64,000 nucleotides of DNA from Psammoneis japonica (lineage: Eukaryota), in NCBI GenBank assembly GCA_008632985.1, contig QPGO01000280.1, positions 1 through 64,000 of the forward strand, written 5' to 3'. The translations under genes were made by a program, and so were the position numbers. Shown here one piece after another: positions 9,153-49,993 of this stretch (position 1 is the stretch's first letter; each line of letters opens with the position of its first letter). The notes under the pieces are model-generated. The model was given only the letters and a program-made list of their open reading frames with translations, was not told the DNA's origin and did no database searches.

Positions 9153-9336
9153 TGAACAAACGCTGATGTGCTGTCACAAACACAGGCAGTTTATGTGCCA
9201 TTGGGGATTGGTCCACTGTCGCTTGTTTGGCGGTCCCAGCAGAGCAACTTTTCACAATTCTGGAACCTGCCGATGCTGTTCAACACTCTGTGTTGTCTTG
9301 CACCCAATTCTCAGCTGTCATGGCAGCATTTGTTCA
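9153..9336 (+). repeat. 5' LTR of CoDi-1
   Basis: Starts TGAACA and ends TGTTCA. Homologous to 16112-16295, 33063-33246, 48444-48627 and 49637-49820. Confidence 0.9.
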
Positions 9337-9349
9337 CTTCATCAGAGCC
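9337..9349 (+). promoter_or_regulatory. Primer-binding-site-like motif (partial match to the tRNA-iMet PBS TGGTATCAGAGC)
   Basis: cttcatcagagcc directly after the LTR. Copy 2 has ctttgtcagagcc, implying ancestral ctttatcagagcc. Confidence 0.55.
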
Positions 9350-9936
9350 AATGCGCTGTGATGTTCATTGCCTGGAACGGGCATTGCGAACGGCACAATG
9401 GCATTGTTGCGATCGATCAATTTTTGCAGCAAGCGCCATGTTGGTCCCATGGTTGCTTGCACGATCGCTGAGTCCTTTGTGCACGTCAATGTTCATGGAC
9501 ACCAACGACATGCTCTTGGAGACCAGAGCTGTGATCCGTTGGACATGACGTCAGTGGACAGAATGTTTGATCACGTGGATGGAGTGTGTTGGCTGAGACA
9601 CACAAACATTCGTGACAAAGACAACACAATGATTTGTGCATTGGGTTTGTTTTGACCACACACATTCAGTTAATCAAAGCACGTTGTCAAACTCTTTAGA
9701 CACTGTGCATGCAGATGCATGTCTGTTGCTGATCATTGCTCAGGAGCAACACCGCCTGCTCGTGGGTTTGCCAAGCAGAAACTGCCAAATCGGCACGAGA
9801 ACCACACATTTTTCTCACTTTTCTCCACTCACACAAGTGGATGCTCACGCGTCGAAACGCAAACAACCATTGACACACCACAGCCGCTGCCGCAGCCTTT
9901 GCCGCTTGTCTTGCACATTGTGGATGCAATGCGCAG

Positions 9937-11301
9937 ATGCGCACCCACATGGCCCGTCAAGGCTTTGCTGCTGTCGAGGACTTGGAACAGGTCCCCATGA
10001 CAGAAATTGCTGACATGACTGAGGGCATTGTGAAAAGCGTGGATGCCGCCGCCAACCCCCAAGTCCGCTTCCCACACCTGGCGAATCGCAAGCTCAAGGC
10101 ACTGCGTGCATGGATTGACTGCCGCAGGGCCCGAAACCAAGAGCCGACCGCTGCTCTTTTCGCTGGCAACGTTGTTGGAACATGGACGGCACATCTCACA
10201 GAACTAGAGCAATTCAAGTCAGCAGACTCGGACGACGAATCGGCCTCCAAAACAGCCGTGGAGCTCAAGAATCTGTGTGGCTGGCCCACCATCCAAGAGT
10301 CACTGGAGACCAAACTGCGCCACCACCGCAGTGCCGTCACCAGCATGCCCCTTGTCTGCTCAACTGGGGAGCACTAAGACATCACCGCCAAAATGTTGGC
10401 TGCCACCTGCACTGCCATTGACGAGGACCTCATTGCCACCACTCGACTTGCAGGAGCTCAGCACACTCAGGATGGGCAACACCTGCATGATCTCTTGAAG
10501 AAGTCAGTGATGGGGGGGCCCGGATGGGCTTTTGTCAAGCCTTCCAATCACAATCGCGATGGTCGAACTGTTTTCTTTGCACTTGAGAGGCAGGCGGAAG
10601 GATCGGCTGCCACCACCACCCAAAAGAACCGTGCTTGTGCACAGATTGCCACTGCAAAGCACACCGGATGGGGTCGATTCACTTTTGACCAGTGCACTCA
10701 ACACCATCAAAAGGCTCACAACGACTTGTCTGAGCTTGATGAACCAGCAGCCGAGACCAAGAAGGTCTCTGACTTTCCAAAGGGTGTCTCTGACCCCAGG
10801 TTGGAAACTGGCAAGAGTGCAGTGGACGGCAACCCAACGAAGCTCGCGGATTTCGAAGCATGCCAGCAGCACATGAAGACTCTGGTGGAAAATGCTAAGA
10901 ACCGCAATGCTGACACTTGTGGAATCGCGTCCATCCAATGCTGCAACAACCGGCGCGGAAACCCTGGTGGAAAGCACCAACCCAAAGAGGATGAGCCCAG
11001 GATCCGGGCAGGCCACCATCCTGTTGAAGAGTGGAGTGCTCTTGACGGTCCTGAGCAAGAGCAAGTTAAGAAGCTTCGCAATGCCAAGAAAGCCAAAAAG
11101 AAATGCAAAGCTGCAGCTGTGTCCTCAGAGGCTGAATGGGTTGACACCGAAACGCGCGCTGTTAAGAAAGTGGCTGTTGCCGAGCCTGATTCTCAACCTG
11201 CTGATGAACAAAAGGACTCCGAAGAGTCCAACAAACCTGCCACCAATGCAGGCACGCAGTTCGGACGTGGCGCACATGAGAAACCTCAGAAGGAGGAATG
11301 A
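9937..11301 (+). pseudogene. gag: CoDi-1 gag-like ORF (internal stop at 10375-10377)
   Basis: Lies after the PBS. GGPGWAFVK..RDGR..AEG and FTFDQ..HQKAHNDL..KKVSDF motifs. Collinear with 38733-39848. Confidence 0.75.
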
Positions 11302-14300
11302 ATGGTTGCGCCAGCACCAAAAGGTGTAGAACCGAATGTTGCCAAACCTGCTGGCACCACACATTTGTCCAAGCAATTCTTAAAGGACACACATGTCTCT
11401 TTGTCATCTGCTGGAAATTCAGATGATGAAGCAACCACTGATTTGGACTCGCACGCTGACACGTGTGCTGTTGGGTCCAATTTTGTAATGCACTCTGACA
11501 TCGACAGAACTGTTGTGGCACACCCTTGCTCCGAACAGTGCGCACCAATGAAAAACATTCCCATTTGCACGGCTGCTGCCATGTGGGTTGATCCAACTGA
11601 TGGACAACCACACCTGCTGCCAGTCCATGAGGCTGTGTTTTTTGGGGACAAGATGACTGACACTCTCCTGTGCCCCAACCAACTGCGAGTGAATGGACTG
11701 ACTGTCCACGACACCCCTCGCCAGTTTGACCCGACTGGCACACACTCTGTTTCTTTCTCTGACTCAAAGATCAGGATGCCATTGCGCATGCGAGGTGTTG
11801 CTTCAGTCTTTGACTCACACAAGCTGACAAAGGAGGATCTGGAGAACCTTCCCCGGCTGGAACTCACACCACCCCTGAGATGGGAGCCTTCTGCTGATGC
11901 CCTGGCACAAAAGGAGGAAGCGTGTGTGTGTGCCAGTGTGCGCCAAGGATCAGCAAAGTCTGACGGACAGTCAAAGATGATGAATGCGACCAGGTGTGTC
12001 GCTTCCATTCATTCACATCAAACATCACATCACAATGAGAATGTCATCATGGATGCCAACGACGATGATTCTCTGCATCACCGCCTGGTTGCTCAGGCAA
12101 ATGTCTCCCACAATGACATTGAGGGAGACGGGCTGCATGACCGGTGTGACCTGGACATCCACCCGGATTGTGCCGAGCAGAAACGGGTGCATGCACTGTC
12201 GACCTCGAGTCGTGCATCGACTGTCACACCCGAGATGCTTTCTAAAAGGTGGAACATTGGCCTGACGGCCGCTGAGAACACCCTTGGAGTGACGACCCAG
12301 GCAGGGGTCCGCAATGTCCACACACCATCCGAACGGAAAGTCCGGAAGAAAGCCCCTTGGCTTAAGTTCCCTGCTGTCAAGGGCTGCTTCTACTCTGACC
12401 AGATGTTTTCGAAGGTTGGGTCAATGCATGGCGGGACAGGAGGAAGCGTGTTTGCCAACGAAAGAGGGTGTGACAGGTTCCATCCTTGGAAGAGGAAACA
12501 GGACCACCCAAACACCGTCATGTCATTCATGCATGACGTTGGCGCACCACAAGTCCTTGTGTCGGATGGCATGCCGGAAATGGCGGAAGGCCAGACCAAA
12601 GAGATTTGCAAGGCATGCAGGACACACCAGGAGGTGTCCACCCCGCACAGCCCCTGGCAGAACCCAGCCAAGGCATCCATTCGTGAGTTGAAGAAGAGAG
12701 TCCGCGTGACTCTGCGCCGGACTGGCGCTCACAGGCGACTTTTTCCCACAGTGCCAAATGGACATGTGACATCCAATGCATGATTGCGAACAGCATGTTG
12801 GACATGGGAGGACGAGTCCCAGAAGAGGAGGTGACAGGTTCAACACCTGACATTTCGTCCCTCTCTCTCTTTGATTGGTGTTAACCTGTCTGTTGCTGCA
12901 TGCCTGTGGCGGAGTTCCCACTCGAGAAGAAGTGCATTGGCCATTGGCTCGGAGTGGCTGACAATTGCGCTGATGACACAGCATTCATTGTTTTGCCCGA
13001 ATCAGGCAAACCCATCATTCAGAAGGATGCACGGGCCATGCCGGAGGATGACCTTAAAACTCCGGCAATCCAGACGGATCTTGCATCGGTCGATCAAGCT
13101 TTGATCGAACGGCTTAACATCCCGGAACAGGATGCCAGTGCTGACTTCCCTGAACTCCCTGACAACTTCATGGACAAATGGGACAATGCCGTTGAACCCA
13201 TGGAACCCGATGCTTCCAAACCCGAAGCTGATGAGTGCAGCCCGGAGGGGCTGGATGAGCATCTCACAGCTCAAGTCATGTCACCATGCAGAGGCAAGCT
13301 GACTCATGCCAGGGTCATTGCACGCAAACGAGACAGCGACGGGGTTCCCATTGGCACTGGGAATGACAACCCTGTCCCAGACTCGAGGACACACGATGTG
13401 GAATTTCCTGATGGATCCACTGGTTCCTGTGCTGCCAACGCAATTGCAGAGAACCCATTCACTCAGATCAACTCTGAAGGGAATGCCCACCAGATTATGA
13501 AGGAGACAGTCGATCACCAACGTGATGCCCGTGCCGCAATGGCTGATGACAGGCACATGACGACTGAGACTGGCAGGCGTGCTCCTGGGAGGACGACCGC
13601 AGGCTGGGACCTGCAAGTCGAATGGAAGGATGGGACTGCATCCTGGGCTCCTCTCAAGGATTTGAAGGAATCCAATCCAGTCAAGGTTGCTGAGTGCGCT
13701 GTGGCAAACAAAGTGGCCAGTGAACCAGCTTTTAACTGGTGGGTCCGAGACATCTTGCGTCGCAGGTCAAGGATCCTGAAGAAAGTCAAGTTGCGTTGCT
13801 GGAAACGTGCACACAAGTTCGGAATTGAACTCCCGAAATCTGTCAAGGAAGCCATGGAGATGGACAACAGAATGGGGACTGACTTCTGGTTCAAGGCTGT
13901 TGAGAAGGAAATGCGTGACATCATGCCTGCATTCGAGTTCCGCGATGACGACACTGTGCCGGTCGGGTGCAAGCATGTTGATTGTCACATGATCTTTGAC
14001 ATCAAGAGCACCCTCCAATGCAAGGCAAGGTTCGTGGCCGGAGGTCATCAAACTGATCCACCCAAGGAATCAACCCATTCCAGTGTGGCATCGCGTGACA
14101 GCATTGGGATGGCATTCACTGTGGCAGCTCTGAATGACCTGGAGGTCCTGAGTGCTGAGGTTCAGAGTGCCTGCTTGAAGGCACACACCAAGGAAAAGTG
14201 TCACACTGCTGCTGGCCTAGAATTTGGGAAGCACAACAAGGGAAGGCCAGTGATCATTGTCCGTGCCTTGCATGTTCTCAAGTCTTCAGGTGCAAGATTT

Positions 14301-15960
14301 GGGGAACATGTGGCAGTCACTTTGTGCGATGCTGGGTTTGAGTCTTGCAAGGCTGACCCGGATGTCTGGATGCAAGCTGCGGTTAAGCCAGATGGCTTCA
14401 AGCACTGGGAATGTGCACTCATCTACGTGGGCGACTTGCTGTGTGTCTCCCATGAACCTCAGAAGGTCATGGATCATGTGAGCTCCAGGTGCACGCTCAA
14501 GGACGGCAGCGTCTGCGAGCTGGAAGAGCACTCAGGCGCCCAAATCAGAAAGCACCAGCTGTCTGACTCGGACGGCAAGACACGCTGGGCCATGTCCTCT
14601 GACCTTTGTGTCAAAAGGGCACTGGCTGATGTTGAATTAGAGCTTGAGAAAACTGACAGGCGTCTTCCGATGAAGGCGTCGACGCCCTTGAGCTCAGGAC
14701 ACAGGCCTGAACTGGACGGTTCACCTGAGTTGAATGCCAAAATGGCCAACTGCTGCCAAGGCCTTGTTGGTGTGCTGCGATGGGCAGTTGAACTAGGGCG
14801 AGTGGACATTTTTGTCGCTGTCTTGCTCATGTCCTCCTGCTTGGCAGCACCACGAGTTGGACACCTGGACGAGGTGCTCCATGTCTTCACATGCTTGAAA
14901 GCTCACTCCAAGTCTGTGCTGGTGTTCGACGACACTGAGCCTGTCTTTGACAAGAGTCATTTCACCAAGCGCAATTGGGAAGAATGTTGCAGCAGGCATC
15001 CCTGCTGCAGCCGCTGATGATGCCACTTTCCTGTGTCTGTGGGCTGTCCGCAGCCACGCTGATCCCACAGAAGCATGTTGCAGAAAACACGACTCCCAGT
15101 GCGAGACCTGCAACAGGCTGCAGGAGTGACCCATGCGACTGAGACTGGTGTGACTGGCCATCGTGCAAGTGACTCACCTTGTGTGAAGGGTCTGTGTAGG
15201 ATGCACGCAGTGCCGAGCATGAGCCTGTGAATTGGCTCCGCACAAGTGTCAATGAGTGTTGCAAAAGACTCAAGTCTTTCCAATGACTTGTTGTGTAACA
15301 AGAATTCTTGTTTCTTGGAAAAAGACACCATTGCGCATTTGCACTCCAATTAAAATAATCTCACAATTTTCACAACACATGAATTGTCAACCTCTTTGCG
15401 ACCAAGCACTTAGACCCAATTTTTGCATGGGGCAATGTCACCCTGGCACAGCTGAACCAATGCCGCCGAGTGTGCCAGAGGCACACGGGAACAGCGTGAC
15501 CACTGCTTGCTTTGTTGATGCCGATCACGCCGGATGCCGTGTGACACGCAGGTCCCATGCTGGGATCCTGACATTTGTCCAATGAGCACCCATCTTGCAT
15601 TGCTCTGAGCGGCAGAACACCGTAGAGTCCTCTACTTTTGGGTGGGAGTTTGTGGCTGTGAAGACTGCAGTGGAGCAAATTGAAGCCTTGCGTTGCAAGC
15701 TTCGGATGCTCAGAATCCCCATGGATGGGGCCGCTGACGTTTTCTGCAACAATGAGGCTGTCTTCAAGAACTCAACCAAACCAGAGTCCACTTTAAAGAA
15801 GAAGCACAATGCAATTGCCTGTCACAGGACTCGTGAGGCACAAGCCACTGGAACAGTGTGCATTGCTTGGGAAGACGGACACACCAATTTAGCGGACATG
15901 CTAACTGAGTTGTTGCCTGGACTGAAGCTCCGGGAAATCACAAGTCACATCCTGTGGTGA
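11302..15960 (+). pseudogene. pol: CoDi-1 pol (protease, integrase, RT, RNase H), disrupted by frameshifts, stops and an insertion
   Basis: Protease LDSHADTC; integrase VSDG and TPHSPWQNPA..IRELK; RT KARFVAGGH and IYVGDLL; RNase H FVDADHAG, CNNEAV, NLADMLT. Confidence 0.92.
14991..15433. mobile_element. 443-bp non-coding insertion in CoDi-1 pol, with a decayed 8-bp TSD and no TIRs
   Basis: Absent from CoDi-2, where gaagaacattgccct is contiguous at about 43406. Flanked by aatgttgc (14983-14990) and aatgtcac (15434-15441). Confidence 0.75.
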
Positions 15961-16111
15961 GTCCCAAAAGGGGACAAACCGAACGGGTTTGCCGCGCAGG
16001 TGTGGCTTTTCCCATCCCCAAAATGAAAACACCACCCTGGAGTGGGGCAGCATCAGGTTGCATTTGTCTGTTGATCTGGCCCGAGCGGAGCTGGTGTCAG
16101 TTCGAGGGGAC

Positions 16112-16295
16112 TGAACAAATGCTGACACACTGTCACGAACACAGGCAGTTTATGTGCTGTTGGTGATTGGTCCACTGTTGCTCATTTGGTGGTCCCAGCA
16201 GAGTGACTTCTCACAATTCTAGAACCTGTTGATGCTGTTCAACACTCTGTCCTGTCTTACACCCAATTCTTGGCTGTCATGGTGGTGTTTGTTCA
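16112..16295 (+). repeat. 3' LTR of CoDi-1, preceded by a short polypurine tract gagggga
   Basis: Homology to 9153-9336 with the same termini. Confidence 0.9.
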
Positions 16296-19073: not shown

Positions 19074-22000
19074 TTGGCAATGGACGGAAACCCTCTTCTC
19101 TGTCCCGGTTGTGGCCAAAGTTTTTTGCGAATGGCCTGCCATTGGAGATGCTCACCGATGTGTTGCTCAGTTGCCCAAGAGTTGCAAACCCAAGATCTGG
19201 TCCCAGATCAAAGTGACATTCCTGCCACAACAGAGGGGCCACCCAAAGAAAGCGGCAGTTCTTCCTCTTCATCCTCTGATGATGACGAATCCCATCCAAG
19301 GCGATCCACTCACAGCAGATTCCCAAGATCTTCAATGAGTGATCCAAGAAGCAGCCCCTTGTTCCCCTCCCAGGATGACACACCGCACGGAATGGACGAC
19401 ATGTCCTCCATTTCATCAAACCACAGCATGCATGGAGTTGAGCTTTTGGCAATGAACGATTTGGATGTTGGTGGTGGTCAATCCTTTGCTGCAGTGTTGG
19501 ACGTGACAATGGAGGAGGAAGAGGACATTCACGATGAGGATCAACGTTTGGGGATCAGGTGTGACGCTCCTGCAGAAGAGGCCTTGGCTTCTGCTCCCTC
19601 TTTGACAAATCTTGATGGAGCTTGCGCAGAGTTGTGCAAGAAGATCATGGACACACGTGGTGCTCCCCTGGAATTGCACAACTGCATTGTTGATTTCATT
19701 GAGAGGCACGCTGGCAACAGCAACATCAAGCTTGGCACAGTTCTGCCAAGGAGAAAAGAGTTGATGCGCACCTTAACTGATCATTTCCCTCTTCCACCCA
19801 GCAAGTCTATTCCTGTCACTCTAGAAACCAAAAATTTCAAAACCGGTTTGCCAAAACGAGTGTCAGTGCCAAGATGGGATTTCACAAAGGTTTGGGAACA
19901 GTTTTTGCTCGATCCTCACCTGTGGTGCAGCAGAGAGAATGTGGCCAATCCAGACAATCCTTTTGGGAAGCACAAAGCAAAGGGGCTGGATGACAAGTGC
20001 CTTTTTGTGGGTGAGTGGTGCAGGCGCAGTTGCGAAGAACGGACAACTGACCCAGAGAAACAATTTCTCGAGCGCAATGTCATTTACCTTGACAAGACTG
20101 GTGGGACACAAGGGATGGGATCACATTGCGGAGAACCAGTGATCATGACCTCTGCGCATGTTGCCTTCAACAAATGGTCGGACAAGAGTGTCTGGAAACC
20201 AGTTGGTTGTCTCCCGGATTTGGAAAAGATGTCGTCATCTGTGGCAAAGAATCTCTCAAACAATCACAAGGCGGAGAAGGGACGCTCGTTGAGAGACCAC
20301 CACACTTGCTTGCGTGTCATTTTGGAGCCACTTTTGGAAGTCATGAGAAAAGGAGGCATGAAAACATGCGTGCGACGAGGGGATGAGACACGACACCTCC
20401 ACGCAATCCCACTGATCATTCTGATCACATGAGATGCAAAAAGCGGCGACTGTCTTGTCGGACGATGCAGAGGTCACAACTGTCGTCAACGTTGCTGTCG
20501 TTTTTGCCTCACTGGCTTCAACAAACTGGACGACCCATGGATTGAATGCAAGTTTGTCCGAGGACTGGATCTCCACCAAGTGCAAACCAAGGCCAACGAC
20601 AATGACAGATCAGACCAAGAAAGGAAGCACTGGCTGGGCATCTTGCATTGCCTCAAGCAACACAACGCACCTGCCAACTGTCTTTTTGAGGCAGACTTTG
20701 GTGCACAACCATGCGGCATCACCCTTGCGACAGCAAGCGACATGATGCATCTCTTTGAAAACGGCACCTTGAAAAGGGCAATCAATTCATTTGTAGACAG
20801 CATGACACCTGTGGTTGCAAGTGAGGTGGACAGCACAGTGGAAAGGATTTTCAGCAATCACCGGTCAACTTGCAAAGCATCCTTTTTGCGAACAAACTTT
20901 AAAGGAGGAGCAACGTCGCTTGCCTTCCTCAACTCTCACCACTGGGCTGGAATGGCTTTTGTTTTCTACCTTCTCCTGTTGGCCAGCAAGGGACGAAACG
21001 CATGTGAGTCATGCTTCCTTGACAAGGACGCAGACGAACCCATTGTTCCAGAGAATCGCAAGACATCCAAAGCAAACTTTGAGAGTTGCCACCAACCCAG
21101 TGAGCACTTGGACTCTGATGATGAAAGGTCGGAGGAGTCCGAAGAGGGTGACTGGGACAAAAATGAGGATGAGAAAGAGGAGAGTGAGGCTGAGGATGGT
21201 GACGACAACCAAAAAAAGAAAAAATGCAAGGGAAAAAGACTTGACTGCAGCGTCCGGCAATTCATTCAATTGCTCAATGACCTTCTTGTCTTCCATGCAT
21301 GGCACAGGCCAGGCGATCCACCCATCACAAGCGCAACTCCCAGTTCATCCATTCAGAAAATAAACAAGAAAATCCGTCTCCTCATTGACCGGATGGTGCA
21401 ATTCATCCCGCGAACAGAAGGATGCGGGTGGAAGCTTCAAAAGCTTCATGAAACACTCCATCTTCCAGTGTTTCTTTGTTGTTGCCGACATGCAATGAAC
21501 TTTGATGCAGGGTTGGGGGAGTGTCTCTTGAAAGACTTTTTCAAGCTGCTGTCATCTGCCGCACAACAACGCAAACTCGACAGTTTTCTGAAGCAGGTCG
21601 TGTCGTGTGTGGAGGACCAAATGAGGCTCAACGCCGCAATTTCAGCCAACAGTTGGATTTTGCCAACTGGGAAAAAGGAATCATCAAGAGTCAGGATGGA
21701 CAATCACACGCTGGGAGGAAGTGCGTTCACTCTCACCTACAACCAAGGGATTGGCGCTGTGACGTTTGAGTGGAGCAGCTTGCACACTCGTTGCCAAGTT
21801 CATCCTGTGTCACCCAACTTCATGTCGGAAAAGTGGGAGGATTGTGTTGGTGAAGATGGTGAAAGTGCACACCTGACTTGTGAGACAGAGTTTTGCAATG
21901 CAAGTGGGAGGGATGCGTGCCGTGCGCACCCCAATTGCAAAAGCAAAGGACCATGGCATGACTTTGCCTGTGTGACCTTTGGCACACGAAAGGGCAATCA

Positions 22001-37000: not shown

Positions 37001-37334
37001 AGTCATGGACTTGACACCTGAAAAACTGAACGGAACAACCAAGACGTTCTTGGTCAGTCATCTTGTTCAGTTGAGAAAGACCCTTTTTTGTCGTTGGCCA
37101 GAACTTGTTCCAACTTTGAGCAATGGCATCAGGGACGAAGTAGGAGATTCTACCACATCACGAGAGAGGAGACAGGAAACGCTAGGTGATGAGTTTCACG
37201 CACAGAGGGAGTGCCCAGCGCACATGGATCAGTTCTATCTTGACAGAAAAGGTTTGTTGCAGTCGCAGCTGAGACAATCTGTGGCATTTGTTTGCATTGT
37301 GCACATCAGGTACAATCTGTTCTACTTGTTTTGA
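34073..37334 (+). pseudogene. Academ/DUF6589-like DDE transposase with an N-terminal RING-like finger
   Basis: CQQC..PCGHLLCLGC; SGDNVN; SADG; VPGPFH; AFRNN; ECDIVQE. Confidence 0.6.
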
Positions 37335-37468
37335 AGCCTTGCTCAATCTCAATAGAGTTGCAAAGAGAGCAGAAGATGACAGCAGGCTCAAGTTGAAGTT
37401 CTTTGGCTGAATCTTGACACAGTGTCAGCGGCATCTGGTGTGCTCGTACGAGCTGAGCATTGGATCAC

Positions 37469-38572
37469 TCAGAGATCTGAATCCAAGTTGATGATGCACA
37501 ACGTGTGACAAGTGTTTTGGCTTGTCTCTGCTGAGTTCTTGACAGTTTCACACTTTCGATGCTTCACTTTCCTCTCTGAGTAAGTCTCACTCTCATTGTC
37601 ATCAAGCAACCACAGAGTGGTGCTGTCGTCCCCAGTCATGCGTTCGACGCAGTCATCGTTGAAAGGAAGGTTCTCGTGGTTGAGACCAATGACAATTCTC
37701 TTTGGGTGAGGTAGAATGGCTTCATCTAGTGGAGCAACTCCATTTTTGCATGGTGCACCAACATTTCGCTCCAAAACAAGAGACAACTTGTAGTTGACGG
37801 GAACATCTCGCACCAATTCCATGGCGTTGGCCACAGATCTCTCGACAGTCGCCACTGCTCTGCGGACAGGTCGTGACATTGCATGGTGTGGCTTCACCAG
37901 CGAGTCTTCACAAGCACGTTGGCGCTTTCCTGAAAGCTTTTTCCCACTTGCACTGTTCCTGGCATGCTTGTCCAGCATTTCCTGAGCATCGGAACAAAGC
38001 ACGACCTTCTCAAGCTCCGGAATGCACTCGTTGGAAACAGCGGGACGTTGACACATGCACTTCAATCTGTCAAACTCCTTCCTTTTGTCATCTGGAGACA
38101 AGCTGCACCACCAATTCATTGCAATGAGCTTCTCTTGAAGTGTCCTCGCATCAAGGATGAGGGACATTGGCAAGCAACGTCCATCGGCAGCAGTTTTCGT
38201 TCCGCATGGGAGTGCTTCTCTGAGATTCTTGCAAAGCTCGGTGTGGAGCTTTGGATCCATCCACACAGCATTGTCATTGTCTTTCATGTTGTTTGGTGGC
38301 ATGGTGTTGTCAATGAGAGCCTTGACTCCACGAATCTTTGCCGCTGGAATTGGAGCCATGGATCCAGTGGGTGACGATGGAAGCATGAACCCCGCCTTGC
38401 ACACATCACTGCCATTGGCAACGGACACCTCAAATTGTGGCGAGCTTTCTTCATTGTCACTTGCATCAGGTGTGACAGTGTTCATGGAAGGCATTGGACA
38501 CATTGCAGCACACAAAATAGAAGCCCCCGGGAGCCATCTTTTGCCATCGTCATTGGCATCAAATTGTGCCAA
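37469..38572 (-). pseudogene. Convergent second ORF of the TIR element, unknown function
   Basis: 367-aa ORF lying wholly within the TIRs. Confidence 0.45.
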
Positions 38573-38732
38573 CAGTGCGTTGGGTCGTGGAATTTTGTGC
38601 CCCTAATGCACTGACGGACAGAATTTTTTCAGCCACCAGCTGACTGGAGACGTCCCCCAGATTGACTGCCGCAGGGCCCGAAATCAAGAGCCGACCGCTG
38701 CTCTCTTCGCTGGTGACGTCATTGGAACATGG

Positions 38733-41700
38733 ATGGCATGTCTCACGGAACTGGAGCAATTCAAGTCTGCAGACTCGGATGACAAATCGGCTGCCAAAAT
38801 GGCCATGGAGCTCAAGAACCCACATGACTGGCCCACCTTCCAAGAGTTGCTGGAGACCGAACTACGTCACCACTGCAGCACCTTTGCCGGCATCCCCCTC
38901 ATCTGCCTCACCAGGGAGCATGAAGATGTCACCGCCGAAATGTTGGCTGCCACCCACACTGCCATTGACAAGGACCTTGTTGCCACTGCTCAACTTGCAG
39001 GAGCTCAGCACACGCAGGACAGGCAACGCCTGTATGATCTCTTGAAGAAGTCAGTGACAGGTGGGCCTGGATGGGCTTTTGTCAAGCCTTCCAATCACAA
39101 CCGCGATGGTCGCACTGCTTTCTTTGCACTTGAGAGGCAGGCAGAAGGATCGGCTGCCGCCACCACCCAAAAGAACCATGCTTGTGCACAGATTGCTGCT
39201 GCAACGCACACCGGACGGGGTCAATTTGCTTTTGACCAGTGCATCCAGCATCATCAAAAGGCTCACAACGACTTGTCTGAGCTTGATGAAGCGGCAGCCA
39301 AGACCAAGAAGGTCTCTGACTTTCTAAAGGGTGTTTCCGACCCCAGGTTGGAAACTGGCAAGAGTGCAGTGGATGGAGACCCGACGAAGCTAGCGGATTT
39401 CAAGGCATGCCAGCAGCATGTGAAGACTCTGGCAGAAAATGCTAAGAATTGCAATGCTGATGCTCACGGGATTGCATCCATCCAATGCCGCAACAACCGG
39501 CGTGGAAACCCTGGCGGAAAGCACCAACCTAAAAAGGACAAGCCCAGGATCCGGGCAGGCCATTGTCCCATTGAAGAGTGGAATGCTCTTGACGGTCCTG
39601 AGCAAGAGCAAGTTCAAAAGCTCCGTGATGCCAAGAAAGCCAAAAAGAAATGCAAAGCTGCAGCTGCATCCTTGGAGGCTGAGTCGGTCGACACCGAAAC
39701 TCGCGCTGTTAAGAAAGTGGCTGTTGTCGAGCCTGATCCTCAACCCACTGATGAACCAAAGGACTCTGAAGAGCCCAGTGAACCTGCCGCCAATGCAGGC
39801 ACCCAGTTCGGACGTGGTGCACACAAGAAACCTCAGAAGGAGGAATGAACAGTTGCGCCAGCACCAAAAGGCATAGAGCCGAATGTTGCTGAACCTGCTG
39901 GCATCACACATTTGTCTGAGCGATTCTCAAAGGATGTGCGTGTCTCTTTGTCATCTGCTGGAAATTCAGATGATGAAGCAACCACTGATTTGGACTCGCA
40001 CGCTGACACGTGTGCTGTTGGGTCCAATTTTATAATGTGCTCTGATGTCGTTAGAACTGTCGTGGCACACCCTTGCTCTGAAGAGCATGCACCAATGGAA
40101 AATGTTCCTATTTGCATGGCTGCTGCCATGTGGGTTGATCCAACTGATGGGCAACCATGCCTGCTGCCAGTCCATGAGGCTGTGTTTTTCGGGGACAAGA
40201 TGACTGACACTCTCCTGTGCCCCAACCAACTGCGAGCGAATGGACTGATTGTCCACGATGCCCCTTGCCAGTTTGATCCAACTGGCACACACTCTGTTTC
40301 TTTCCCTGACTTGAAGATCAGGACACCATTGTGAACACAAGGTGTTGCTTCAGTCTTTGATTCACACAAGCCGACAAAGAAGGATCTGGAGAACCTCCCC
40401 CAGCTGGAACTCACATCACCCCTGAGATGGGAGCCTTCTGCTGATGCCCTGGCACAAAAGGAGGAAGAGCATGCATGTGCTGGTGCATGCCAAGGATCAG
40501 CAAAGTCGGACGGACGGTCGACGATGATGAATGCGACCAGGTGTGTCGCTTCCATTCATTCATGCCAAACGTCCTGTCACGACGAGAATGTCATTGTGGA
40601 CACTGATGACAACAATTCTTTGTATCACCACCTGGTTGCTCAGGCAAATGTCTCCCACAACGACATTGAGGGAGACGGGCCACATGACCGGTGTGACCTG
40701 GACGTCCACCCGGATTGTGCCAAGCGGAAACGGGTGCATGCATTGTCGACCTCAGGTCGTGCATCAACCATCACACCCGAGACACTTTCTAAAAGGTGGA
40801 ACATTGGCCTGACGGGCGCCAAGAACACCCTTAGAGTGACAACCCAGGCAGGGGTCCGCAATGTCCACACACAATCCAAATGGAAAGTCTGGAAGAAAGC
40901 CCCTTGGCTTAAGTTCCCTGCTGTCAAGGGACGCTTCTACTCTGACCAGATGTTTTTGAAGGTCAAATCGATGCATGGCAAGACAGGAGGAAGCGTGTTT
41001 GCCAACGGAAGAGGGTGTGACAGGTTCCATCCTTGGAAGAGGAAACAGGACCACCCAAACACCGTCATGTCATTCATGCATGACGTTGGCGCACCGCAAG
41101 TCCTTCCATTTCTGAGTTGAAGAAGAGAGTCCGTGTGACTCTACGCCGGACTGGCGCTCACAGGCGACTTTGGTCCCACAGTGCCAAATGGACATGTGAT
41201 GTCCGACGCATGATTGCGACTGGCACATTGGACATGGGAGGATGAGCATCAGAAGAGGAGGTGACCGGTTCAACACCTGACATTTCGTCCCTCTCCCTCT
41301 TTGATTGGTGTCAACCTGTCTGTTGCCACATGCCTGTGGCGGAGTTCCCACATGAGAAGAAGTGCATTGGCCATTGGCTCGGAGCAGCTGACAATTGCAC
41401 TGTTGACATGGCATTTGTCATTTTGCCCAAATCAGGCAAACCCATCATTTGGAAGGATGCATGGGTCATGCTGGAGGATGACCTAAAACTCCGGCGATCC
41501 AGACGGATCTTGCATTGGTTGATCAAGCTTTGATCGAACGGCTTAGCATCCCGGAACAGGATGCCAGTGCTGACTTCCCTGAACTCCCTGATGACTTCAT
41601 GGACGAATGGGACGATGCCGTTGAACCCGTGGAACCCGACGCTTCCAAACCGGAAGCTGATGAGCACACCCCGGAAGGGCTGGATGAGTGTCTCACAGCT

Positions 41701-43826
41701 CAAGTCATGTCACCACGCGGAGGCGAGCTGACTCATGCTAGGGTCATTGCACGCAAACAAGACAGTGACGGGATTCCCATTGGTGCCAGGAACGACAACC
41801 CTGTCCCAGACTCGAGGATGTGCAATGTGGAATTTCCTGATGGATCCGCTGACTCCTGTGCTGCCAACGTAATTGCAGAGAACCCATTTGCTCAGATTGA
41901 CTCTGAAGGGAATGTCTGCCAGGTCATGAAGGAGACAGTCAATCACCGACATGATGCCCGTGCCACAATGGCCAATGATGGGTGCACAACGACTAAGACT
42001 GGCAGGCGTGCTCCTGGGAGGACGACCACAGGCTGGGACCTGCAAGTCAAATGGAAGGATGGGACTGCATCCTGAGTTCCTCTCAAGGATTTGAAGGAAT
42101 CCAATCCAGTCGAGGTTGCTGAGTGCACTGTGGCAAACAAAGCAGCTGGTGAACCAGCCTTTAACTGGTGGGTCCAAGACGTCTTGCGTTGCAGGTCAAG
42201 GATCCTGAAGAAAGTCAAGTCGCGCCACTGGAAATGTGTGCATGAGTTCGGAATTGAACTCCTGAAATCTGTCAAGGAAGCCATGGAGATGGATGACAGA
42301 ATGGGGACTGACTTCTGGTTCCAGGCTGTCGAGAAGGAAATGCGCAACGTCATGCCTGCACTCAAATTCCGTGATGACGACACTGCACCGGTCGGGTGCA
42401 AACATGTTGATTGTCACATGATTTTTGACATCAAGAGCACCCTCCAACGTAAAGCGAGGTTCGTGGCCGGAGGCCATCAAACCGATCCACCCAAGGAATC
42501 GACCCATTCTAGCGTGGTGTCACGTGACAGCGACAGGACAGCATTCACAACAGCAGCTCTGAATGACCTGGAGGTCCTGAGTGCTGATGTTCAGAATGCC
42601 TGCTTGAATGCGCACACTGAGGAAAAGTGATGCACCACTGCTGGCCTGGAATTTGGGAAGCAGAACGAGGGAAGGCCGGTGATCATTGTTCGTGCCTTGT
42701 GTGGTCTCAAGTCTTCAGGTGCAAGATTTAGGGAACACATGGCAGCTGCTCTGCGGGATGCTGGGTTTGAGTCTTGCAAGGCTGACCTGGATGTCTGGAT
42801 GCAAGCTGCGGTTAAGCCGGATGGCTTCAAGCACTGGGAACATGTGCTTGTCTGCGTGGATGACTTGCTGTGCATCTCCCATGAACCTCAGAAGGTCATG
42901 GATTGCATGAGCTCTGGGTGCACGCTCAAGGACGGAAGTGTCTGCGAGCCGGAAGAGCACTCAGGCGCCCAGATCAGAAAGTGCCAGCTGTCTGACTCGG
43001 ATGGTGAGACATGCTTGGCTGTGTCCTCTGACCATGTCAAAAGGGCATTGGCTGATGTTGAATCAGAGCTTAAGAAAACTGGTGGGCATCTTCCAACGAA
43101 GGCGTCAACGCCCTTGAGCTCGGGGTGCAGGCCTGAACTGGACGGTTCACCTGAGTTGAACGCCAAAACGGCTGACTGCTGCCAAGGCCTTGTTGGTGTG
43201 CTGCGATGGGCAGTTGAACTGGGGCGAGTGGACATTTTTGTTGCTGTCTCGCTCATGTCCTCCTGCTTGGTGGCACCACGAGTTGGACACCTGGACAAGG
43301 TGCTCCATGTCTTTGCATGCTTGAAGGCTCACTCCAAGCCTGTGCCAGTGTTCGACAACACTGAGCCCGTCTTTGACGAGAGTTGCTTTGCCAAGTGTGA
43401 TTGGGAAGAACATTGCCCTGGCGCGGCTGAACCAATGCCGCCGAACATGCCAGAGGCATGCAGGAATGGCATGACCACTGCTTGCTTTGTTGATGCTGAT
43501 CACACCGGATGCCGTGTGACACGCAGGTCCCACACTGGGATCCTGACATTTGTTCAATGAGCGCCCATCTTGTGTTGCTCCAAGCGGCAGAATGCCGTAG
43601 AGTCCTCTGCTTTTGGGTCGGAATTTGTGGCTATGAAGACTGCAGTGGAGCAAATTGAAGCCTTGCGTTGCAAGCTTCGGATGCTCAGAATCCCCATGGA
43701 TGGGGCCACTGACGGTTTCTGCGATGATGAGGCTGTCTTCAAGAACTCAACTAAACCAGAGTCCACTTTAAAGAAGAAGCACAATGCAGTTGCCTGTCAC
43801 AGGACTCGTGAGGCACAAGCCACTGC
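38733..43826 (+). pseudogene. pol: CoDi-2 gag-pol, multiply disrupted
   Basis: Same motifs as CoDi-1 (LDSHADTC, KARFVAGGH, VCVDDLL, FVDADHTG). Has an internal deletion near 41106. Confidence 0.9.
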
Positions 43827-44239
43827 TCAGAATGCTGTGCACTGCCCAATGAGTGCGGGAGGTTCTCAACAACCCAAGAGGCAAAGAAATTGCCACTCGG
43901 CTAATTGTTGAGTCCCTTCTCCGCACACACATTTAGGCATGTGTTGTGCACAGCATCATCACACAGCATTTGTCCAACTCTCCCTCTTGTTGCAGGATGG
44001 GGCATCGCCTTGGGGCGCATCCGCATGGTGGACTTACGAATTTGACCATGCACTCCCTCTGTCAGGCAGGCGGATGGGTTAGCGCCATGTGGCGCATCCG
44101 GCCAACACCAAGGGATGAGGAGTGGGTTCGAAGCCCAACCGCCCACCCCAGATGGGGTTGGAAAGGGGCAGGCCGAGAAAGAAAAGGAGGCTTGGATTTT
44201 GAGGCCGATTTGAACCAGCGACCTCAGGAAGCGTAAAGA

Positions 44240-45167
44240 CTCACAACCACTGCGGCATTGAAGGAAGGATGGACTGCACGTCAGGCAGACTACACCACAG
44301 CCTTCTGCCAAGCTGACATCGCCGAGGAAGTTTGTGTGACACCGCCGAAGGGTTTTGCGCCGAGGTCGGGACTCAATGTGGTTCTCAAACTTTTGAAAGG
44401 ACCACACAGCCTAAAACAGTCTCCCAAGGGCTTCTACGAGAACTTGCGAGCTGGTTTAACCGAGCGCGGATGGGTGCCTTCAACAACAGATCCCTGTTTG
44501 TATTTCAAAGAGGGTGTGATGTGTGTGGTGCACGTCGACGACACAGCATTTGCTGGAGCTTCAGCTGAAGCTCTAGAAGAAGAAATTCGCAAGTTGGGAG
44601 TCTCCGACAACAAACATCACCACGCATTTGAACTCAGAGACAAAGGAGAAGTCGGTGACTTTCTCGGTGTCAAGATCGAAAAGCTCTCTGAGGGTTGATT
44701 TCTACTCACTCAACCCGGTCTAATTGACAAGGTCCTGCGCACCGCACAGATGCAGGATTGCAATGGAGCATCTGCTCCAGCTCTACCTGCGGCCATTGGT
44801 GCCAACATGGATGGCCTGCCTTTTGATGAACCCTGCGATTGTCGCTCAGTTGTTGGAATGTTGATGTGCTTGGCAGCGAACAGCCGGCCAGACATTGCAC
44901 ATGCCACACATCAAGCAGCTCGATTTTCGTTTGCACCCCGAGCGTCCCACGCTGCTGCAGTGAAGCAGATGCTCCGACACCTCAAAGCCACTGCCACTGA
45001 AGGTCTCATTCTCAAGCCTGCGCAAGATCATCGAGTTGATTGTTACTTCGATTCTGACTTCGCGGGGTTGTTTGGTGTGGAAGATGGTCAAGACCCAGTT
45101 TCTGTCAAGTCCAGGACTGGACACCTCATCTGCTGCGCCGGCTGCCCGCTTGTCTGGGTGTCCAAGC
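44240..45167 (+). pseudogene. Inverted partial copy of the second Copia family's RT region
   Basis: Reverse complement of about 45878-46800 (ADYTTAFCQ, DPCLYF, HVDD, SRPDIA, FDSDFAG). Confidence 0.88.
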
Positions 45168-45169
45168 TG

Positions 45170-48100
45170 CAGTCGAGATGTGCTCCTGCAGCTGGTGGGA
45201 TGGACAAGACCTCGGAGGTTGGCAGCAATGTGAGTGGCAACAGAGGCAAACAGACGCTTGTTTCAAAGTCGTTGTCTAAAAATTGTGACGAAAGTCGTTG
45301 GTCTGTTTTGAATCGATTTTGTGATGAGCCATTTATTTCGAAGAGAAAATCTGAGTCTGGGTTGCAGTCATGAGATGCGACCAGAATGACGTTGAGTCGT
45401 GACTCTCCCTCTCAACCAAGAGAGCTCACCAGCCCATGAGAGCCTTTCCAGCCGCACGGAACGCATCGGTCCGCAGTCCCTTCGTGAACTGATCGGCCAG
45501 TTGCTCTAGAGTGCTGACAGGTTGGATGTCGATCTCCAATTGTTCGACTTTAGTCCTAAACCAATGGTGCAGGACACCGATGTGTTTGGTTCGCGGAGAC
45601 AACTTGGGCATGCATGTGAACTTGAGGCACGCGGAGTTATCTTCACACACAACGGATGCAGGTGGGACATTCTGCTCAACAGGCGAGTCATCGGTGCCTT
45701 GGTTTGCCAGCTCAAAAGCCTTGGAGTGAGTCGTGATGGGGTTTTGGTGGTCAGACTTTCCGAATGCGTGGTGGTTGCGCTCCTTGAGAACTTCACGAAT
45801 GGGGATGAGATCGCGCACAGCTTGAGAAAGTGCGACACATTCCGCTTCCATGGTCGACAATGCCACAAGAGTCTGTGGCTTGGACACCCAGACAAGCGGG
45901 CAGCCGGCGCAGCAGATGAGGTGTCCAGTCCTGGACTTGACAGAAACTGGGTCTTGACCATCTTCCACACCAAATGACCCCGCGAAGTCAGAATCGACGT
46001 GACAATCAACTCGATGATCTTGCGTGGGCTTGAGAATGAGACCTTCAGTGGCAGTGGCTTTGAGGCATCAGAGCATCCGCTTCACTGCAGCAGCGTGGGA
46101 CACTCGGGGTGCAAACAAAAACCGAGCTGCTTGATGTGTGGCACATGCAATGTCTGGCCGGCTGTTTGCTGCCAAGTGCATCAACATTCCAACAACTGAG
46201 CGACAATCGCAGGGTTCATCAAAAGGCAGGCCGTCCGTGTCAGCACCAATGGCCGCAGGTAGAGCTGGAGCAGATGCTCCATTGCAATCCTGCATCTGTG
46301 CGGTGCGCAGGACCTTGTCAATTAGACCGGGTTGAGTGAGTAGAAATCGACCCTTGGAGAGCTTTTTGATCTTGACACCGAGAAAGTTGCCGACTTCTCC
46401 TTCGTCTCTGAGTTCAAATGCGTGGCGATGTTCGTCGTCGGAGACTCCTAACTTGCGAATTTCTTCTTCTAGAGCTTCAGCTGAAGCTCCAGCAAATGCT
46501 GTGTCGTCGACGTGCACCACACACATCATGCCCTCTTTGAAATACAAACAGGGATCCATTGTTGAAGGCACCCATCCGCGCTTGGTTAAACCAGCTCGCA
46601 ACTTCTCGTAGAAGCCCTTGGGAGACTGTTTTAGGCCGCACAGTCCTTTCAAAAGTTTGAGAACCATGTTGAGTCCCGACCTCGGTGCAAAACCCTTTGG
46701 CGGTGTCACACAAACTTCCTCAACGACATCAGCTTGGCAGAAGGCTGTGGTGCAGTCTGCCTGACGTGCAGTCCATCCTTCCTTCAATGCCGCAGTGAGC
46801 ATGAGTCGGACACTGGACCATTGCACGACCGGCGTGCAGGTTTCAAAACAATCGACTCCTTCTTTCTGTAAATCACCGCGGATGCAGTGTCGGGCCTTGT
46901 GCTTGAGAGGGGTTCCATCTGGGAGTCTCTTGAGCTTAAGTGCCCATGTGCTTTGAAGTGCATTCACATGCGGCTGACGTTCGACTGCTTTCCAGGCTTG
47001 ACGATGTGTGAGTGCGTTGACCTCAATTTTCATCGCCTCAATCCATTCGTCGGCGTCCGGACCTTTCAGAGCATTGTGTGACGAAGGCATGTCAGGGTCC
47101 TTGGTTTTCTCACTAGCCACGCAGGCTCGTGGATCGCCGACATTGATGGTGCCACTGTCCAAATCCGTCTCAAGAGTCGCCAGATGAGCTGGTTGAGCCT
47201 CGTGTCCAATCGGCAGTGGCATTTCCTTGATGGAGCTGAAGCAGACTTCATCTGCAAACTTGGCAGAGTTGAACTGTCCCTTGGTTGACCTTGAAGACCG
47301 TCGCAGCCCTGATGCTCCCTCTGGATTTGTCATGGGAGGTGTCTCGACTGGGGAGGAGCTGTTGGTTCCGTCGGCGCTTCGGGTGGTGGAAGTTTGTCAC
47401 TGTCTTGAGGTTCAGGTGGCTGAATTGGTGCAGAGTCCATAGAGTCTGTAGGAGCTTGAGTCGCAGGTGGGACTGGTGGCATTGGCTGTTGAATCGCAGG
47501 TGCGACTCGATCGGCAACGTCGTCACGAGAAGTGGGTGAATCCCGTGCAGTGATCAATGGAGTGGGCTCAAAATGGCCGCGAACACGTGTTGCTCTGGCC
47601 AGTTCTCGCTCTTTACATTGACACTCTGGAGGGGCAAGCCACTCATCGTGCAAATGGACTGATTGATCCTTCTCCAGAGGGATGCACATTGATTGGTTGA
47701 GACATGAGTGTTCCCAGTGACCAGGTGGATCTGTCTCCCTCTCGATTGATGGTGCGGTGGTGAAGAGATTGTCAAAGACCACATGATGCTGAGGAGCAAC
47801 ACTTCCAGTTTGTAGATTGAGGACCAAAGGAACCTCACTGGAATGGATGGCACTGAGTCCCACGAACAAAGCGCGACGAGTGCGAGGTTCCCAACGTGGG
47901 AGTTTCTTTCCGGAAGTGAGGGTTGGATCAAGTGCGTGCGCTGGACATCCCCATGTGTGAATGTCTCGCAACCAATGTCTTGGCACTGTCGAACTGGTGA
48001 AAATGTCCGCTGGGCAATGTCCCTTGGAATTTGGGGTGACATTGCAGATGTGCGTGGCACAAGAAACAGCCATGGGCCACAGGGAGCTGTCAATCCCTCC

Positions 48101-48178
48101 CTTCCTGTGAATGGATGCATGAAGCAACATCGCTCTCGCCATGTTGGAGATGCTTCGGATGCCCCGCTCTGCGACGCC
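45170..48178 (-). mobile_element. 5'-truncated Ty1/Copia of a second family (integrase C-terminus, RT, RNase H, PPT, probable partial 3' LTR)
   Basis: LWPMAV..WGCPAH..KLPRW; KHKARHCIRGDLQKEGVDCFET; HVDD; VALSTMEAEC; CEDN; RTKHI; QLADQFTK. PPT gagagggagag at 45403-45413 on the minus strand. Confidence 0.88.
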
Positions 48179-48556
48179 CTGGAATGGTGCACATTGCTTG
48201 GGAAGACGGACGCACGAATTTAGCGGATGTGCTGGCCAAGTTGTTGCCTGGACCGAAGCTCCAGGAAATCATAAGTCATGTCCCATGGTGAGTCCCAAAA
48301 GGGGACAAACCGAATGGGTTTGCCGCGCAGGTGCGGCTTTTCCCACCCCCAAAATGAAAATGCTGCCCTGGAATGGGGCAGCATCAGGTTGCATTTGTTT
48401 GTTGATCTGGCCCCGAGCGGAGCTGGCGTCAGTTCGAGGGGACTGAACAAATGCTGATGTGCTGTCACGAACACAGGCAGTTTATGCACTGTTGGCGATT
48501 GGTCCACTGTTGCTTGTTTGGCGGCCCCGGCAGCACAACATCTCACAATTCTAGAA

Positions 48557-49200
48557 CCTGTTGATGCTGTTCAACACTCTGTCTTGTCTTACACCCAATT
48601 CTTGGCCATCATGGCAGCATTTGTTCATCAGCAATGACCCCCACTTGTTCACACTTGAGGAGTTCACTGACCATTTTCTTGGTCCTGAGTGTGCAGCATC
48701 CCTCTCCATGGGTGCAGTGCCATCTGCTCCCACTCCTGGCTTGTTGCCACCAAAACCACGTTACCCCGTGCATGACTTTAAACAAGGAATCAAACATGAT
48801 CCACTTGCCTTTGTGATTCTCAAGTCAGACAAACAGCAGCACACATGGCACACCTCTGTTGTTGCACAGGCCCGCTCCCAGGACATTGACCGCATTCTCA
48901 ATCCAACACACAAGCCCTGTTGATGCTGTTCAACACTCTGTCTTGTCTCACACCCAATTCTTGGCCATCATGGCAGCATTTGTTCATCAGCAATGACCCC
49001 CACTTGTTCACACTTGAGGAGTTCACTGACCATTTTCTTGGTCCTGAGTGTGCAGCATCCCTCTCCATGGGTGCAGTGCCATCTGCTCCCACTCCTGGCT
49101 TGTTGCCACCAAAACCACATGACCCCGTGCATGACTTTAAATGAGGAATCAAACATGATCCACTTGCCTTCATGACTCTCAAGTCAGACAAACAGCAGCA
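48557..49200 (+). repeat. Tandem duplication (359-bp period) of an LTR end plus a gag-like fragment of another Copia family
   Basis: 48557-48841 matches 48916-49200. Peptide DFKQGIKHD..LKSDKQ..W..AQARSQD. Confidence 0.85.
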
Positions 49201-49993
49201 AATTGAAGCCTTGCGTTGCAAGCTTCGGATGCTCGGAATCCCCATGGATGGGGCCACTGACGTTTTCTGCGACAATGAGGCTGTCTTCAAGAACTCAACT
49301 AAACCAGAGTTCACTTCAAAGAAGAAGCACAATGCAATTGCCTGTCACAGGACTCGTGAGGCACAAGCCGCTGGAATGGTGCACATTGCTTGGGAAGATG
49401 GACGCACGAATTTAGCGGACGCACTGACTGAGTTGTTGCCTGGACCGAAGCTCCGGGAAATCACAAGTCATGTCCCATGGGGTGAGTCCCAAAAGGGGAC
49501 AAACCGAACGGGTTTGCCGTGCAGGTGCGGCTTTTCCCACCCCCAAAATGAAAATGCTGCCCTGGAACAGGGCAGCATCAGGTTGCATTTGTCTGTCGAT
49601 CTGGCCCGAGCGGAGCCAGTGTCAGTTCGAGGGGACTGAACAAATGCTGATGTGCTGTCACGAATGTGGGCAGTTCATGCACTGTTGGCGATTGGTCCAC
49701 TGTCGCTCATTTGGTGGCCCCGGCAGCGCAACATCTCACAATTCTAGAACCTGTTGATGCTGTTCAACACTCTGTCTTGTCTTGCACCCAATTCTCAGCT
49801 GTCATGGCAGCATTTGTTCAGGGGGTTTCGAACCCCTGGCCTTCTGCCTGATGGTTGCTCAATGAACCACTCTGCTGTGAATTCACAACGCAGCATGCAT
49901 GCAGACAAAAGGTCATTTTTGTCACAACCTTTGTGACTTTTAAAGGCTGCAACACGTCGCCGTGATGCGTTGGCTCTCATGAGCAGCTGGACA

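Follow-up and report, generated by a model that had tools for sequence, protein, structure and literature searches.

In the first 64,000 bp of contig QPGO01000280.1 (assembly GCA_008632985.1), the stretch called the window below, we found two decayed copies of one copia-type long terminal repeat (LTR) retrotransposon in which nearly every TpA dinucleotide has been converted to TpG or CpA. The data establish the signature of these changes, their direction, their timing after integration, their saturation and the limits of the domain in which they occurred. We hold it probable that, as a whole, they are best explained by separate integrations followed by DNA-level hypermutation of TpA, together with a slower decay of CpG, targeted at mobile or silenced DNA. 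An earlier note on this DNA had started from codons that read His in one copy and Cys in the other, and had traced them to an ancestral Tyr struck independently in each copy after insertion.

Two copies of one element

Comparison of the window with itself by blastn delimited the two copies and their parts as follows.

9153-16295, plus strand: copy 1, a full-length decayed Ty1/copia-type LTR retrotransposon of 7143 bp, with an LTR pair and colinear with copy 2
9153-9336, plus strand: 5' LTR of copy 1, 184 bp, placed by alignment
9337-9349, plus strand: primer-binding site (PBS) of copy 1, directly after the 5' LTR, with CA at the discordant dinucleotide
13957-14475, plus strand: reverse transcriptase (RT) core of copy 1, Pfam RVT_2, residues 353-525 of the open reading frame (ORF) 12900-15014
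16112-16295, plus strand: 3' LTR of copy 1, 184 bp, placed by alignment
33063-49820, plus strand: copy 2, same family as copy 1, split by two nested inserts
33063-33986, 38660-43825 and 49197-49820, plus strand: copy 2's own segments, colinear with copy 1 and 80-92% identical to it by blastn
33063-33246, plus strand: 5' LTR of copy 2, followed at 33247 by the PBS, with TG at the discordant dinucleotide
49637-49820, plus strand: 3' LTR of copy 2, placed by alignment

The Ty1/copia hallmarks are present: LTRs that start with TG and end with CA in both copies according to the LTR alignment, a short target-site duplication and a PBS after the 5' LTR. The flanking 5-mers are GAAGG/AAGGG in copy 1 and AGGGT/GGGGT in copy 2, and target-site duplications so unlike each other indicate separate integrations. 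The 705-aa ORF 12900-15014 of copy 1 had 1017 homologs at E <= 0.001; all of the best 120 carry RVT_2, and the two named proteins among those 120 both belong to the diatom Fragilaria crotonensis. The RVT_2 score of copy 1 itself was 26.5 bits, below the cut-off of 31.6, whereas intact relatives reach 59-62 bits. A weak integrase (rve) match of 17 bits lies upstream in one homolog. Five of the seven ORFs first searched against Pfam matched no family, including three of copies 1 and 2 and one of nested insert 1, and the same was true of seven ORFs searched later. Judged from the LTR, target-site and PBS features, both copies are Ty1/copia-type LTR elements.

Differences between the copies

The two copies are 87.8% identical, their alignment comprising 5730 matches, 797 mismatches (726 transitions and 71 transversions) and 622 gap columns. 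Of the 6516 dinucleotides aligned, 182 oppose CA to TG, in both orientations (TG/CA 72, CA/TG 110). A further 204 oppose CG to TG or CA and 36 oppose TA to TG or CA, with no case of CG against TA. Changes among CG, TG, CA and TA thus hold 604 of the 797 mismatches. Adjacent double differences numbered 247, of which 182 are the CA/TG sites, against 97.4 +/- 8.7 (maximum 129) in 1000 permutations of the mismatch positions; the clustering of CA/TG differences is far beyond chance.

In both copies the observed/expected ratio of TA is 0.09-0.11 and that of CpG 0.55, while CA and TG are enriched 1.5-1.8 fold. ApT stands at 0.91-1.0, near expectation, while TpA is down about tenfold, so that the hits are confined to TpA. 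All seven His/Cys peptide pairs quoted in the earlier note were found, each in the copy to which it had been assigned (codons 14271, 14700, 13260, 13236, 13392, 14412 and 14553 in copy-1 coordinates), and its two PBS strings start at 9337 and 33247, immediately downstream of the 5' LTRs.

The ancestral dinucleotide

CA opposed to TG may descend from TA or from CG. At each discordant site we asked which of the two restores the residue conserved in homologs, using a residue profile per codon built from the 120 homologs, which were mapped on copy 1 by tblastn. The profile covers 81 of the 182 sites, and favored TA at 62, CG at 16 and neither at three; with a likelihood ratio of at least 5 the counts were 46 for TA and 13 for CG. 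Upstream of 12058, where 89 discordant sites lie, 21 came within reach of a second homolog set, made up of 60 long polyproteins; it gave 17 for TA, three for CG and one undecided, with site 12057 belonging to both sets. The tblastn cover of the two sets together is 11368-15955. In the PBS, TA at the discordant dinucleotide yields a 10-nt match to a tRNA-Met-complementary motif, and CG a match of only 8 nt; the motif is the one quoted for plant copia elements (PMC3852365).

The seven quoted codons speak most directly. Homologs carry Tyr in 120 of 120 cases at 14271, 115 of 115 at 14700, 107 of 113 at 13392, 113 of 120 at 14412 and 89 of 106 at 13260, whereas 13236 shows Tyr 47 times and Phe 35 times among 102, and 14553 shows Trp 35, Tyr 34 and Phe 28 times among 117. 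Tyr or another aromatic residue therefore stands at all seven, where Arg, His or Cys would have spoken against the earlier note. Its argument that a CG ancestor would give a non-conserved Arg applies to these seven codons; it fails at four other discordant codons where Arg is the conserved residue, namely 13020 (84 of 86), 15484 (86 of 97), 15859 (72 of 89) and 14958 (44 of 103). A TA ancestor would even create a stop at 13020, and on the homolog residues these four codons are CpG-derived. Likewise, its derivation of CA/TG pairs from TA applies to the majority of sites, while about 20% of them come from CpG. At sites hit in a single copy and polarized by the profile, CG was ancestral in 59 cases against eight and TA in nine against two. 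As for rebuilding the active element from its two copies, as the earlier note had proposed, this is only partly feasible: sites changed the same way in both leave no trace, and an outgroup is required to tell TA from CG.

Hits after integration

The two LTRs of one element are identical when it integrates. In copy 1 the 5' and 3' LTRs are now only 84.8% identical by blastn, with 28 differences of which eight are CA/TG sites, and the LTR pair of copy 2 shows 18 differences, five of them CA/TG. In one column of the LTR alignment, three LTRs still read TA, a fourth TG and a fifth CA. Since the LTR pairs within one element diverge in the CA/TG manner and the target-site duplications differ between elements, the hits came after integration and struck each copy on its own, as had been proposed.

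Saturation and speed

Columns with Tyr in at least 60% of homologs number 29, and provide 55 readable copy-codons: Cys in 33, His in 19, Phe in two and Tyr in one. This sole retained Tyr lies in the YVDD box of copy 1 (14424), in a CTAC context; in the same box, the next-but-one Asp after Tyr 14424 reads Gly. In the copy-1 ORF, Tyr makes up 0.14% of residues against 3.92% in the 120 homologs, while His rises to 3.97% from 2.46% and Cys to 3.83% from 1.22%. Together with the TA ratio given above, the single Tyr left in 55 copy-codons agrees with the near-saturation that the earlier note had read from the sequence.

A two-process model accounts for these numbers. Starting from about 419 ancestral CpG, with a loss of 0.418 in each lineage, the model predicts that 36.6 CA/TG sites stem from CpG, or 20% of the 182, in agreement with the profile test (16 of 78 informative sites). 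The remaining CA/TG sites imply about 328-357 ancestral TpA (5.0-5.5% of dinucleotides), near the expectation from base composition, and a modelled TpA conversion of 94-95% per lineage. The fit suggests that TpA was still intact in the source element at the time both copies arose, and that almost all conversion was independent in each copy.

Younger repeats of the window allow the two processes to be timed against each other. The 920-bp inverted repeats of nested insert 2 (94.2% identical; coordinates below) differ by 14 CA/TG sites, three TA single hits and four other differences in 920 bp, with a CpG loss of 0.20 and a TpA loss of 0.945 per lineage. A second pair, 21734-22760 / 26331-27364, holds nine CA/TG sites with a CpG loss of 0.12. 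In such younger pairs (94-98% identical) TpA conversion ran at least 13-16 times faster than CpG decay and, judging from the repeat-pair numbers, it would outpace other substitutions hundreds of times.

Conversion also depended on the flanking bases. The 3' neighbor of the hit A at discordant sites, taken over both copies, was T in 120 cases, C in 100, G in 82 and A in 62, and that of the unhit A was A in 69, G in 50, C in 19 and T in 12. Flanks of the TpA surviving in 1-61,880 were mostly TTAA (82), CTAA (76), GTAA (67), CTAC (62) and ATAA (31), more rarely CTAG (28), ATAG (15), GTAC (9) and ATAC (5), with no ATAT.

The TpA-depleted domain and its edge

The signature extends over almost the whole window.

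1-61880: TpA-depleted, CpG-poor and TG/CA-rich domain made up solely of mobile elements, its left edge lying beyond the window
61840-62000: sharp edge of the domain, where TA per 200 bp rises from 0-3 to 15 at about 61,880-62,000
62131-64000, minus strand: host-type gene with DUF7507/DUF11 repeats in 327-bp tandem units (Pfam DUF7507, E=7.8e-65)

The TA observed/expected ratio lies between 0.01 and 0.23 in all 62 one-kb bins of 1-62,000; there TG and CA range over 1.05-2.25, CpG is mostly 0.3-0.7, and the 61,880 bp contain 375 TA in all. In the last two bins of the window TA stands at 0.69 and 0.99 and CpG at 0.92 and 1.25. The depleted elements belong to several classes: the copia copies, a terminal-inverted-repeat element, a non-LTR element, an integrase ORF and a weak Plavaka-like match. 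The host-type gene serves as an internal control of normal composition, and its tandem units have no CA/TG sites among their differences. Within this 64-kb window, therefore, mobile DNA is depleted and the host-type gene spared.

Stop triplets in all three frames of the plus strand of 1-62,000 amount to 183 TAA, 115 TAG and 1591 TGA. The loss of TAA and TAG produces long overlapping ORFs on both strands, and the 75 ORFs of at least 150 aa in the window, which overlap on both strands, are probably for the most part not genes.

Three further observations concern this region. Short repeats of the GATCCG type and a CpG-rich patch lie exactly at the domain edge (61846-61925). The DUF7507/DUF11 family is named mostly from bacteria, and the best homologs of the host-type gene are 57-71% identical to it. 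The asymmetry between TG and CA relative to element orientation, seen in the one-kb table, is inconsistent between elements.

Proposed explanation and alternatives

We propose that a source with normal TpA content gave rise, by separate integrations, to two elements of one copia-type family, and that each copy was afterwards struck at the DNA level by two transition processes acting on self-complementary pyrimidine-purine steps. The main process would convert TpA to TpG or CpA, depending on the strand struck. As TG and CA would no longer be targets, each TA would end as one or the other, and no CG/TA pair would be seen. At a TA conversion of about 94% per copy, the copies would disagree at roughly half of the sites, a TAY codon for Tyr then reading Cys in one and His in the other. 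A slower, ordinary decay of CpG would yield the same two products at about one-fifth of the CA/TG sites, among them the Arg codons. The TpA process would extend through the entire mobile-element block of at least 62 kb and halt sharply at the host gene; such a domain-wide action with so sharp a halt has the look of a hypermutation targeted at mobile or silenced DNA, of the type measured in Bigelowiella natans. As to chemistry, the leading idea would be that adenine in a 5'-TA context is deaminated, whichever strand it lies on, and some signal at mobile or silenced DNA may do the targeting. A stronger form of the proposal, to which we give slightly less than even credence, is that such hypermutation goes beyond viral inserts of a single chlorarachniophyte and is a saturating, domain-wide inactivation of transposons, the mirror image of repeat-induced point mutation (RIP), acting in a second lineage, one with diatom-type copia elements, at a rate hundreds-fold above background and with the extended motif TAT > TAC > TAG > TAA. 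If this were true, the motif could identify the responsible DNA-editing enzyme.

Several points weigh against the explanation by separate integrations and later TpA hypermutation. Homolog profiles reach only 81 plus 21 of the 182 sites (12057 being shared), the LTRs, leader and gag lying outside their coverage apart from the PBS. A homogeneous TpA model expects about one TA shared by both copies and 16 were observed, so that, under this model, either a refractory class exists or new TA arise. Columns with conserved Tyr were concordant in 17 cases (Cys in both copies in 12, His in both in five) against seven discordant, and some hits may therefore predate the split of the copies or be biased by site. 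A rule based on flanking bases, meant to tell whether a Tyr codon became Cys or His, succeeded in only 23 of the 37 cases it decided, and was dropped as a reason for the concordant sites. Finally, the one sequencing run with reads from this region is probably the assembly's own data, and hence not independent support.

Sequence alone does not separate T-to-C from A-to-G at a self-complementary TpA, and the flank bias reads equally well as a preference for the 5' neighbor of T (A>G>C>T) or for the 3' neighbor of A (T>C>G>A). The same DNA-level signature might then arise from thymine, if an oxidized or modified T in TpA mispaired with G. Thymine-modifying enzymes occur in protists; nothing in the window favors this version, which we consider unlikely, although it is the strongest of the alternatives. 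It is far less probable that modified bases in silenced DNA were miscalled during sequencing or assembly, the real DNA still being TA. A sharp-edged domain could track a chromatin or modification domain, and the platform of the relevant public run (X1) is not on record. This run contains a fraction of 0.66 of the sampled words of 52581-62580, while X2 and X3 contain next to none and no RNA run was listed. Its contigs in the TA-poor part (388, 376 and 672 bp) show 0, 0 and 1 differences at a word depth of 30-34, near the depth of 26 of a 699-bp contig in the normal part. Contigs of this kind would not result from noisy or strand-discordant reads; they fit accurate reads and speak against miscalling. 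The run also gave 5631 related contigs, with 1691 transitions against 301 transversions among their differences. Moreover, the copies differ also by indels, transversions and nested insertions, and the same signature is described as arising de novo in Illumina-sequenced lines of Bigelowiella natans (bioRxiv 10.64898/2026.01.13.699255).

Slightly less credible still is adenosine-to-inosine editing of the transcript by an ADAR- or ADAT-like enzyme before reverse transcription, which would make the copies be born mutated. Retroelements do pass through RNA, and the B. natans preprint attributes to ADAR-type editing a preference for U before the edited A (bioRxiv 10.64898/2026.01.13.699255). On the other hand, each copy carries both A-to-G and T-to-C changes (the 72 and 110 sites of the two orientations), and a terminal-inverted-repeat DNA element and the intervening DNA are equally TA-poor. 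The eight and five CA/TG sites within LTR pairs that were alike at integration contradict RNA editing, leaving it at most a possible minor contribution. CpG methylation and deamination as the source of all CA/TG discordance, with a CG ancestor hit on one strand in each copy, is even harder to believe. CpG is indeed depleted (0.55) and was ancestral at 59 of 67 informative single-hit sites, and 16 of 78 informative CA/TG sites favor CG, including the four Arg codons 13020, 15484, 15859 and 14958. Yet the other 62 favor TA, some at Tyr residues invariant in 120 of 120 and 115 of 115 homologs; the CpG model yields only 36.6 of the 182 sites; and CpG decay cannot remove TpA, whose ratio is about 0.1. 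CpG decay is thus contradicted as the sole cause and stands as a minor component. The least probable of all these readings ascribes the loss of TpA to codon usage, GC-biased gene conversion or selection. In its favor, AT is changed to GC, and many genomes mildly avoid TpA; but invariant Tyr residues were destroyed, the LTRs and PBS were struck too, and the losses are confined to TpA (ApT 0.9-1.0) and independent in each copy.

Nested inserts and other elements

The remaining features of the window are these.

33987-38659, strand not assigned: nested insert 1 of copy 2; terminal inverted repeats about 60-80 bp long, 882-aa ORF at 34686-37334
43826-49196, strand not assigned: nested insert 2 in copy 2, with a younger copia RT, inverted repeats and an extra 3' end
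44248-45167 / 45878-46797: the 920-bp repeats of nested insert 2, inverted and not direct, 94.2% identical
46068-47330, minus strand: well-preserved copia RT in nested insert 2 (RVT_2, E=3.5e-34)
48176-48627: partial extra 3' end of the copia-type element with a third LTR copy, inside nested insert 2
55801-56745, minus strand: Exo_endo_phos endonuclease domain of a non-LTR element
59257-60471: integrase ORF

Nested insert 1 is an element of about 4.7 kb whose terminal inverted repeats were seen as an inverted blastn match (33968-34046 / 38600-38678). Its TA ratio is 0.03-0.18, and its 882-aa ORF gave no Pfam match. The flanks GGATT and AGATT suggest a short target duplication.

Nested insert 2 is bracketed by a 177-bp duplication (43649-43825 and 49197-49373), which together with the internal extra 3' end points to a rearrangement instead of a simple insertion. 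One contig of the sequencing run links 43665 to 49219, and corresponds to a copy lacking this insert. The second arm of the 920-bp repeats overlaps the start of the RT ORF, an odd architecture for an LTR element. Further along, a run of long ORFs on the minus strand (50564-57927) includes the endonuclease domain and is equally TpA-poor; it is probably a decayed non-LTR retrotransposon. The weak Plavaka-like match also lies within the TpA-depleted part.

Comparison with known systems

The two copies resemble the CoDi and other Ty1/copia elements of diatoms in their copia-type RT, TG...CA LTRs, 5-bp target duplications and tRNA-Met-type PBS. The likeness to CoDi is drawn from the nearest named homologs (the two F. 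crotonensis proteins among the best 120 of 1017). In Maumus et al. 2009 (PMC2806351), searched by term, 'dinucleotide' and 'deamination' did not occur and 'transitions' occurred once, concerning nutrient regimes and not mutation; a second paper on diatom transposons likewise had no terms of this kind.

Decay of methylated CpG by deamination is similar to what we describe in acting on either strand of a self-complementary dinucleotide and in leaving TG or CA. Neither the loss of TpA nor the change of Tyr to His and Cys can be explained by it, however, and it was at least 13-16 times slower in the younger repeat pairs. In the window it is the minor component, with changes opposite in direction to those at TpA. 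Fungal RIP is likewise described as a dinucleotide-specific burst of transitions in repeated or mobile DNA that spares genes, but it turns CpA/TpG into TpA and makes sequences AT-rich, while here TpA becomes CpA/TpG and GC rises (PMC2621366). The usual mark of RIP, an excess of TpA from C-to-T changes at CpA, is reversed in the window, with TpA depleted about tenfold and CA/TG enriched 1.5-1.8 fold. Hypermutation by ADAR or APOBEC shares the idea of a deaminase-type defense. Their targets are RNA or single-stranded cDNA prior to integration, and they mark one strand, whereas the changes reported here affected both strands after integration.

Such a process also matters for annotation: the loss of TAA and TAG fills these regions with long false ORFs on both strands, and the change of Tyr to His or Cys lowers domain scores below threshold, as for RVT_2 in copy 1 (26.5 bits against about 60 in intact relatives).

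The closest known case, and the sole precedent returned by our literature search for TpA-directed hypermutation of transposons, is that of B. natans, which makes this preprint the only report found so far of a natural A:T to G:C rewriting at TpA in double-stranded genomic mobile DNA (Mettrop et al., bioRxiv 10.64898/2026.01.13.699255). As described there, two integrated viral regions of mutation-accumulation lines mutate about 1000-fold above the rest of the genome, with changes that are almost solely A-to-G and T-to-C and all at TpA. Reverse transcriptase and DDE domains are enriched among the TpA-poor coding sequences, and the authors propose an ADAT2-like DNA adenine deaminase (bioRxiv 10.64898/2026.01.13.699255). 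Both cases thus share the near-exclusive conversion of TpA to TpG or CpA by strand, in foreign or mobile DNA. If the host of our window is not B. natans, the process would be more widespread than reported.

The two cases also differ in several respects. According to the preprint, the new mutations of B. natans fall in two viral inserts that still keep much of their TpA: the larger, giant-virus insert (nucleocytoplasmic large DNA virus, NCLDV) has a TpA rho of 0.45, and the virophage insert is not TpA-poor. The rate of about 1000-fold was measured there, while in the window the speed is read from a near-saturated loss of TpA against four other differences in 920 bp. The window adds a saturated example whose timing is clear from the LTR pairs, from nested inserts that differ in age and from the sharp boundary with a normal gene. 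It also adds numbers beyond those of the mutation-accumulation study, namely a conversion of about 94% per copy, a rate at least 13-16 times that of CpG decay and a flank preference. In comparison with the new mutations of B. natans, the window shows a saturated fossil footprint: nested transposons of several classes, covering at least 62 kb, have a TpA observed/expected ratio of about 0.1, the depletion ends at a sharp edge, and a flank preference and CpG decay accompany it.

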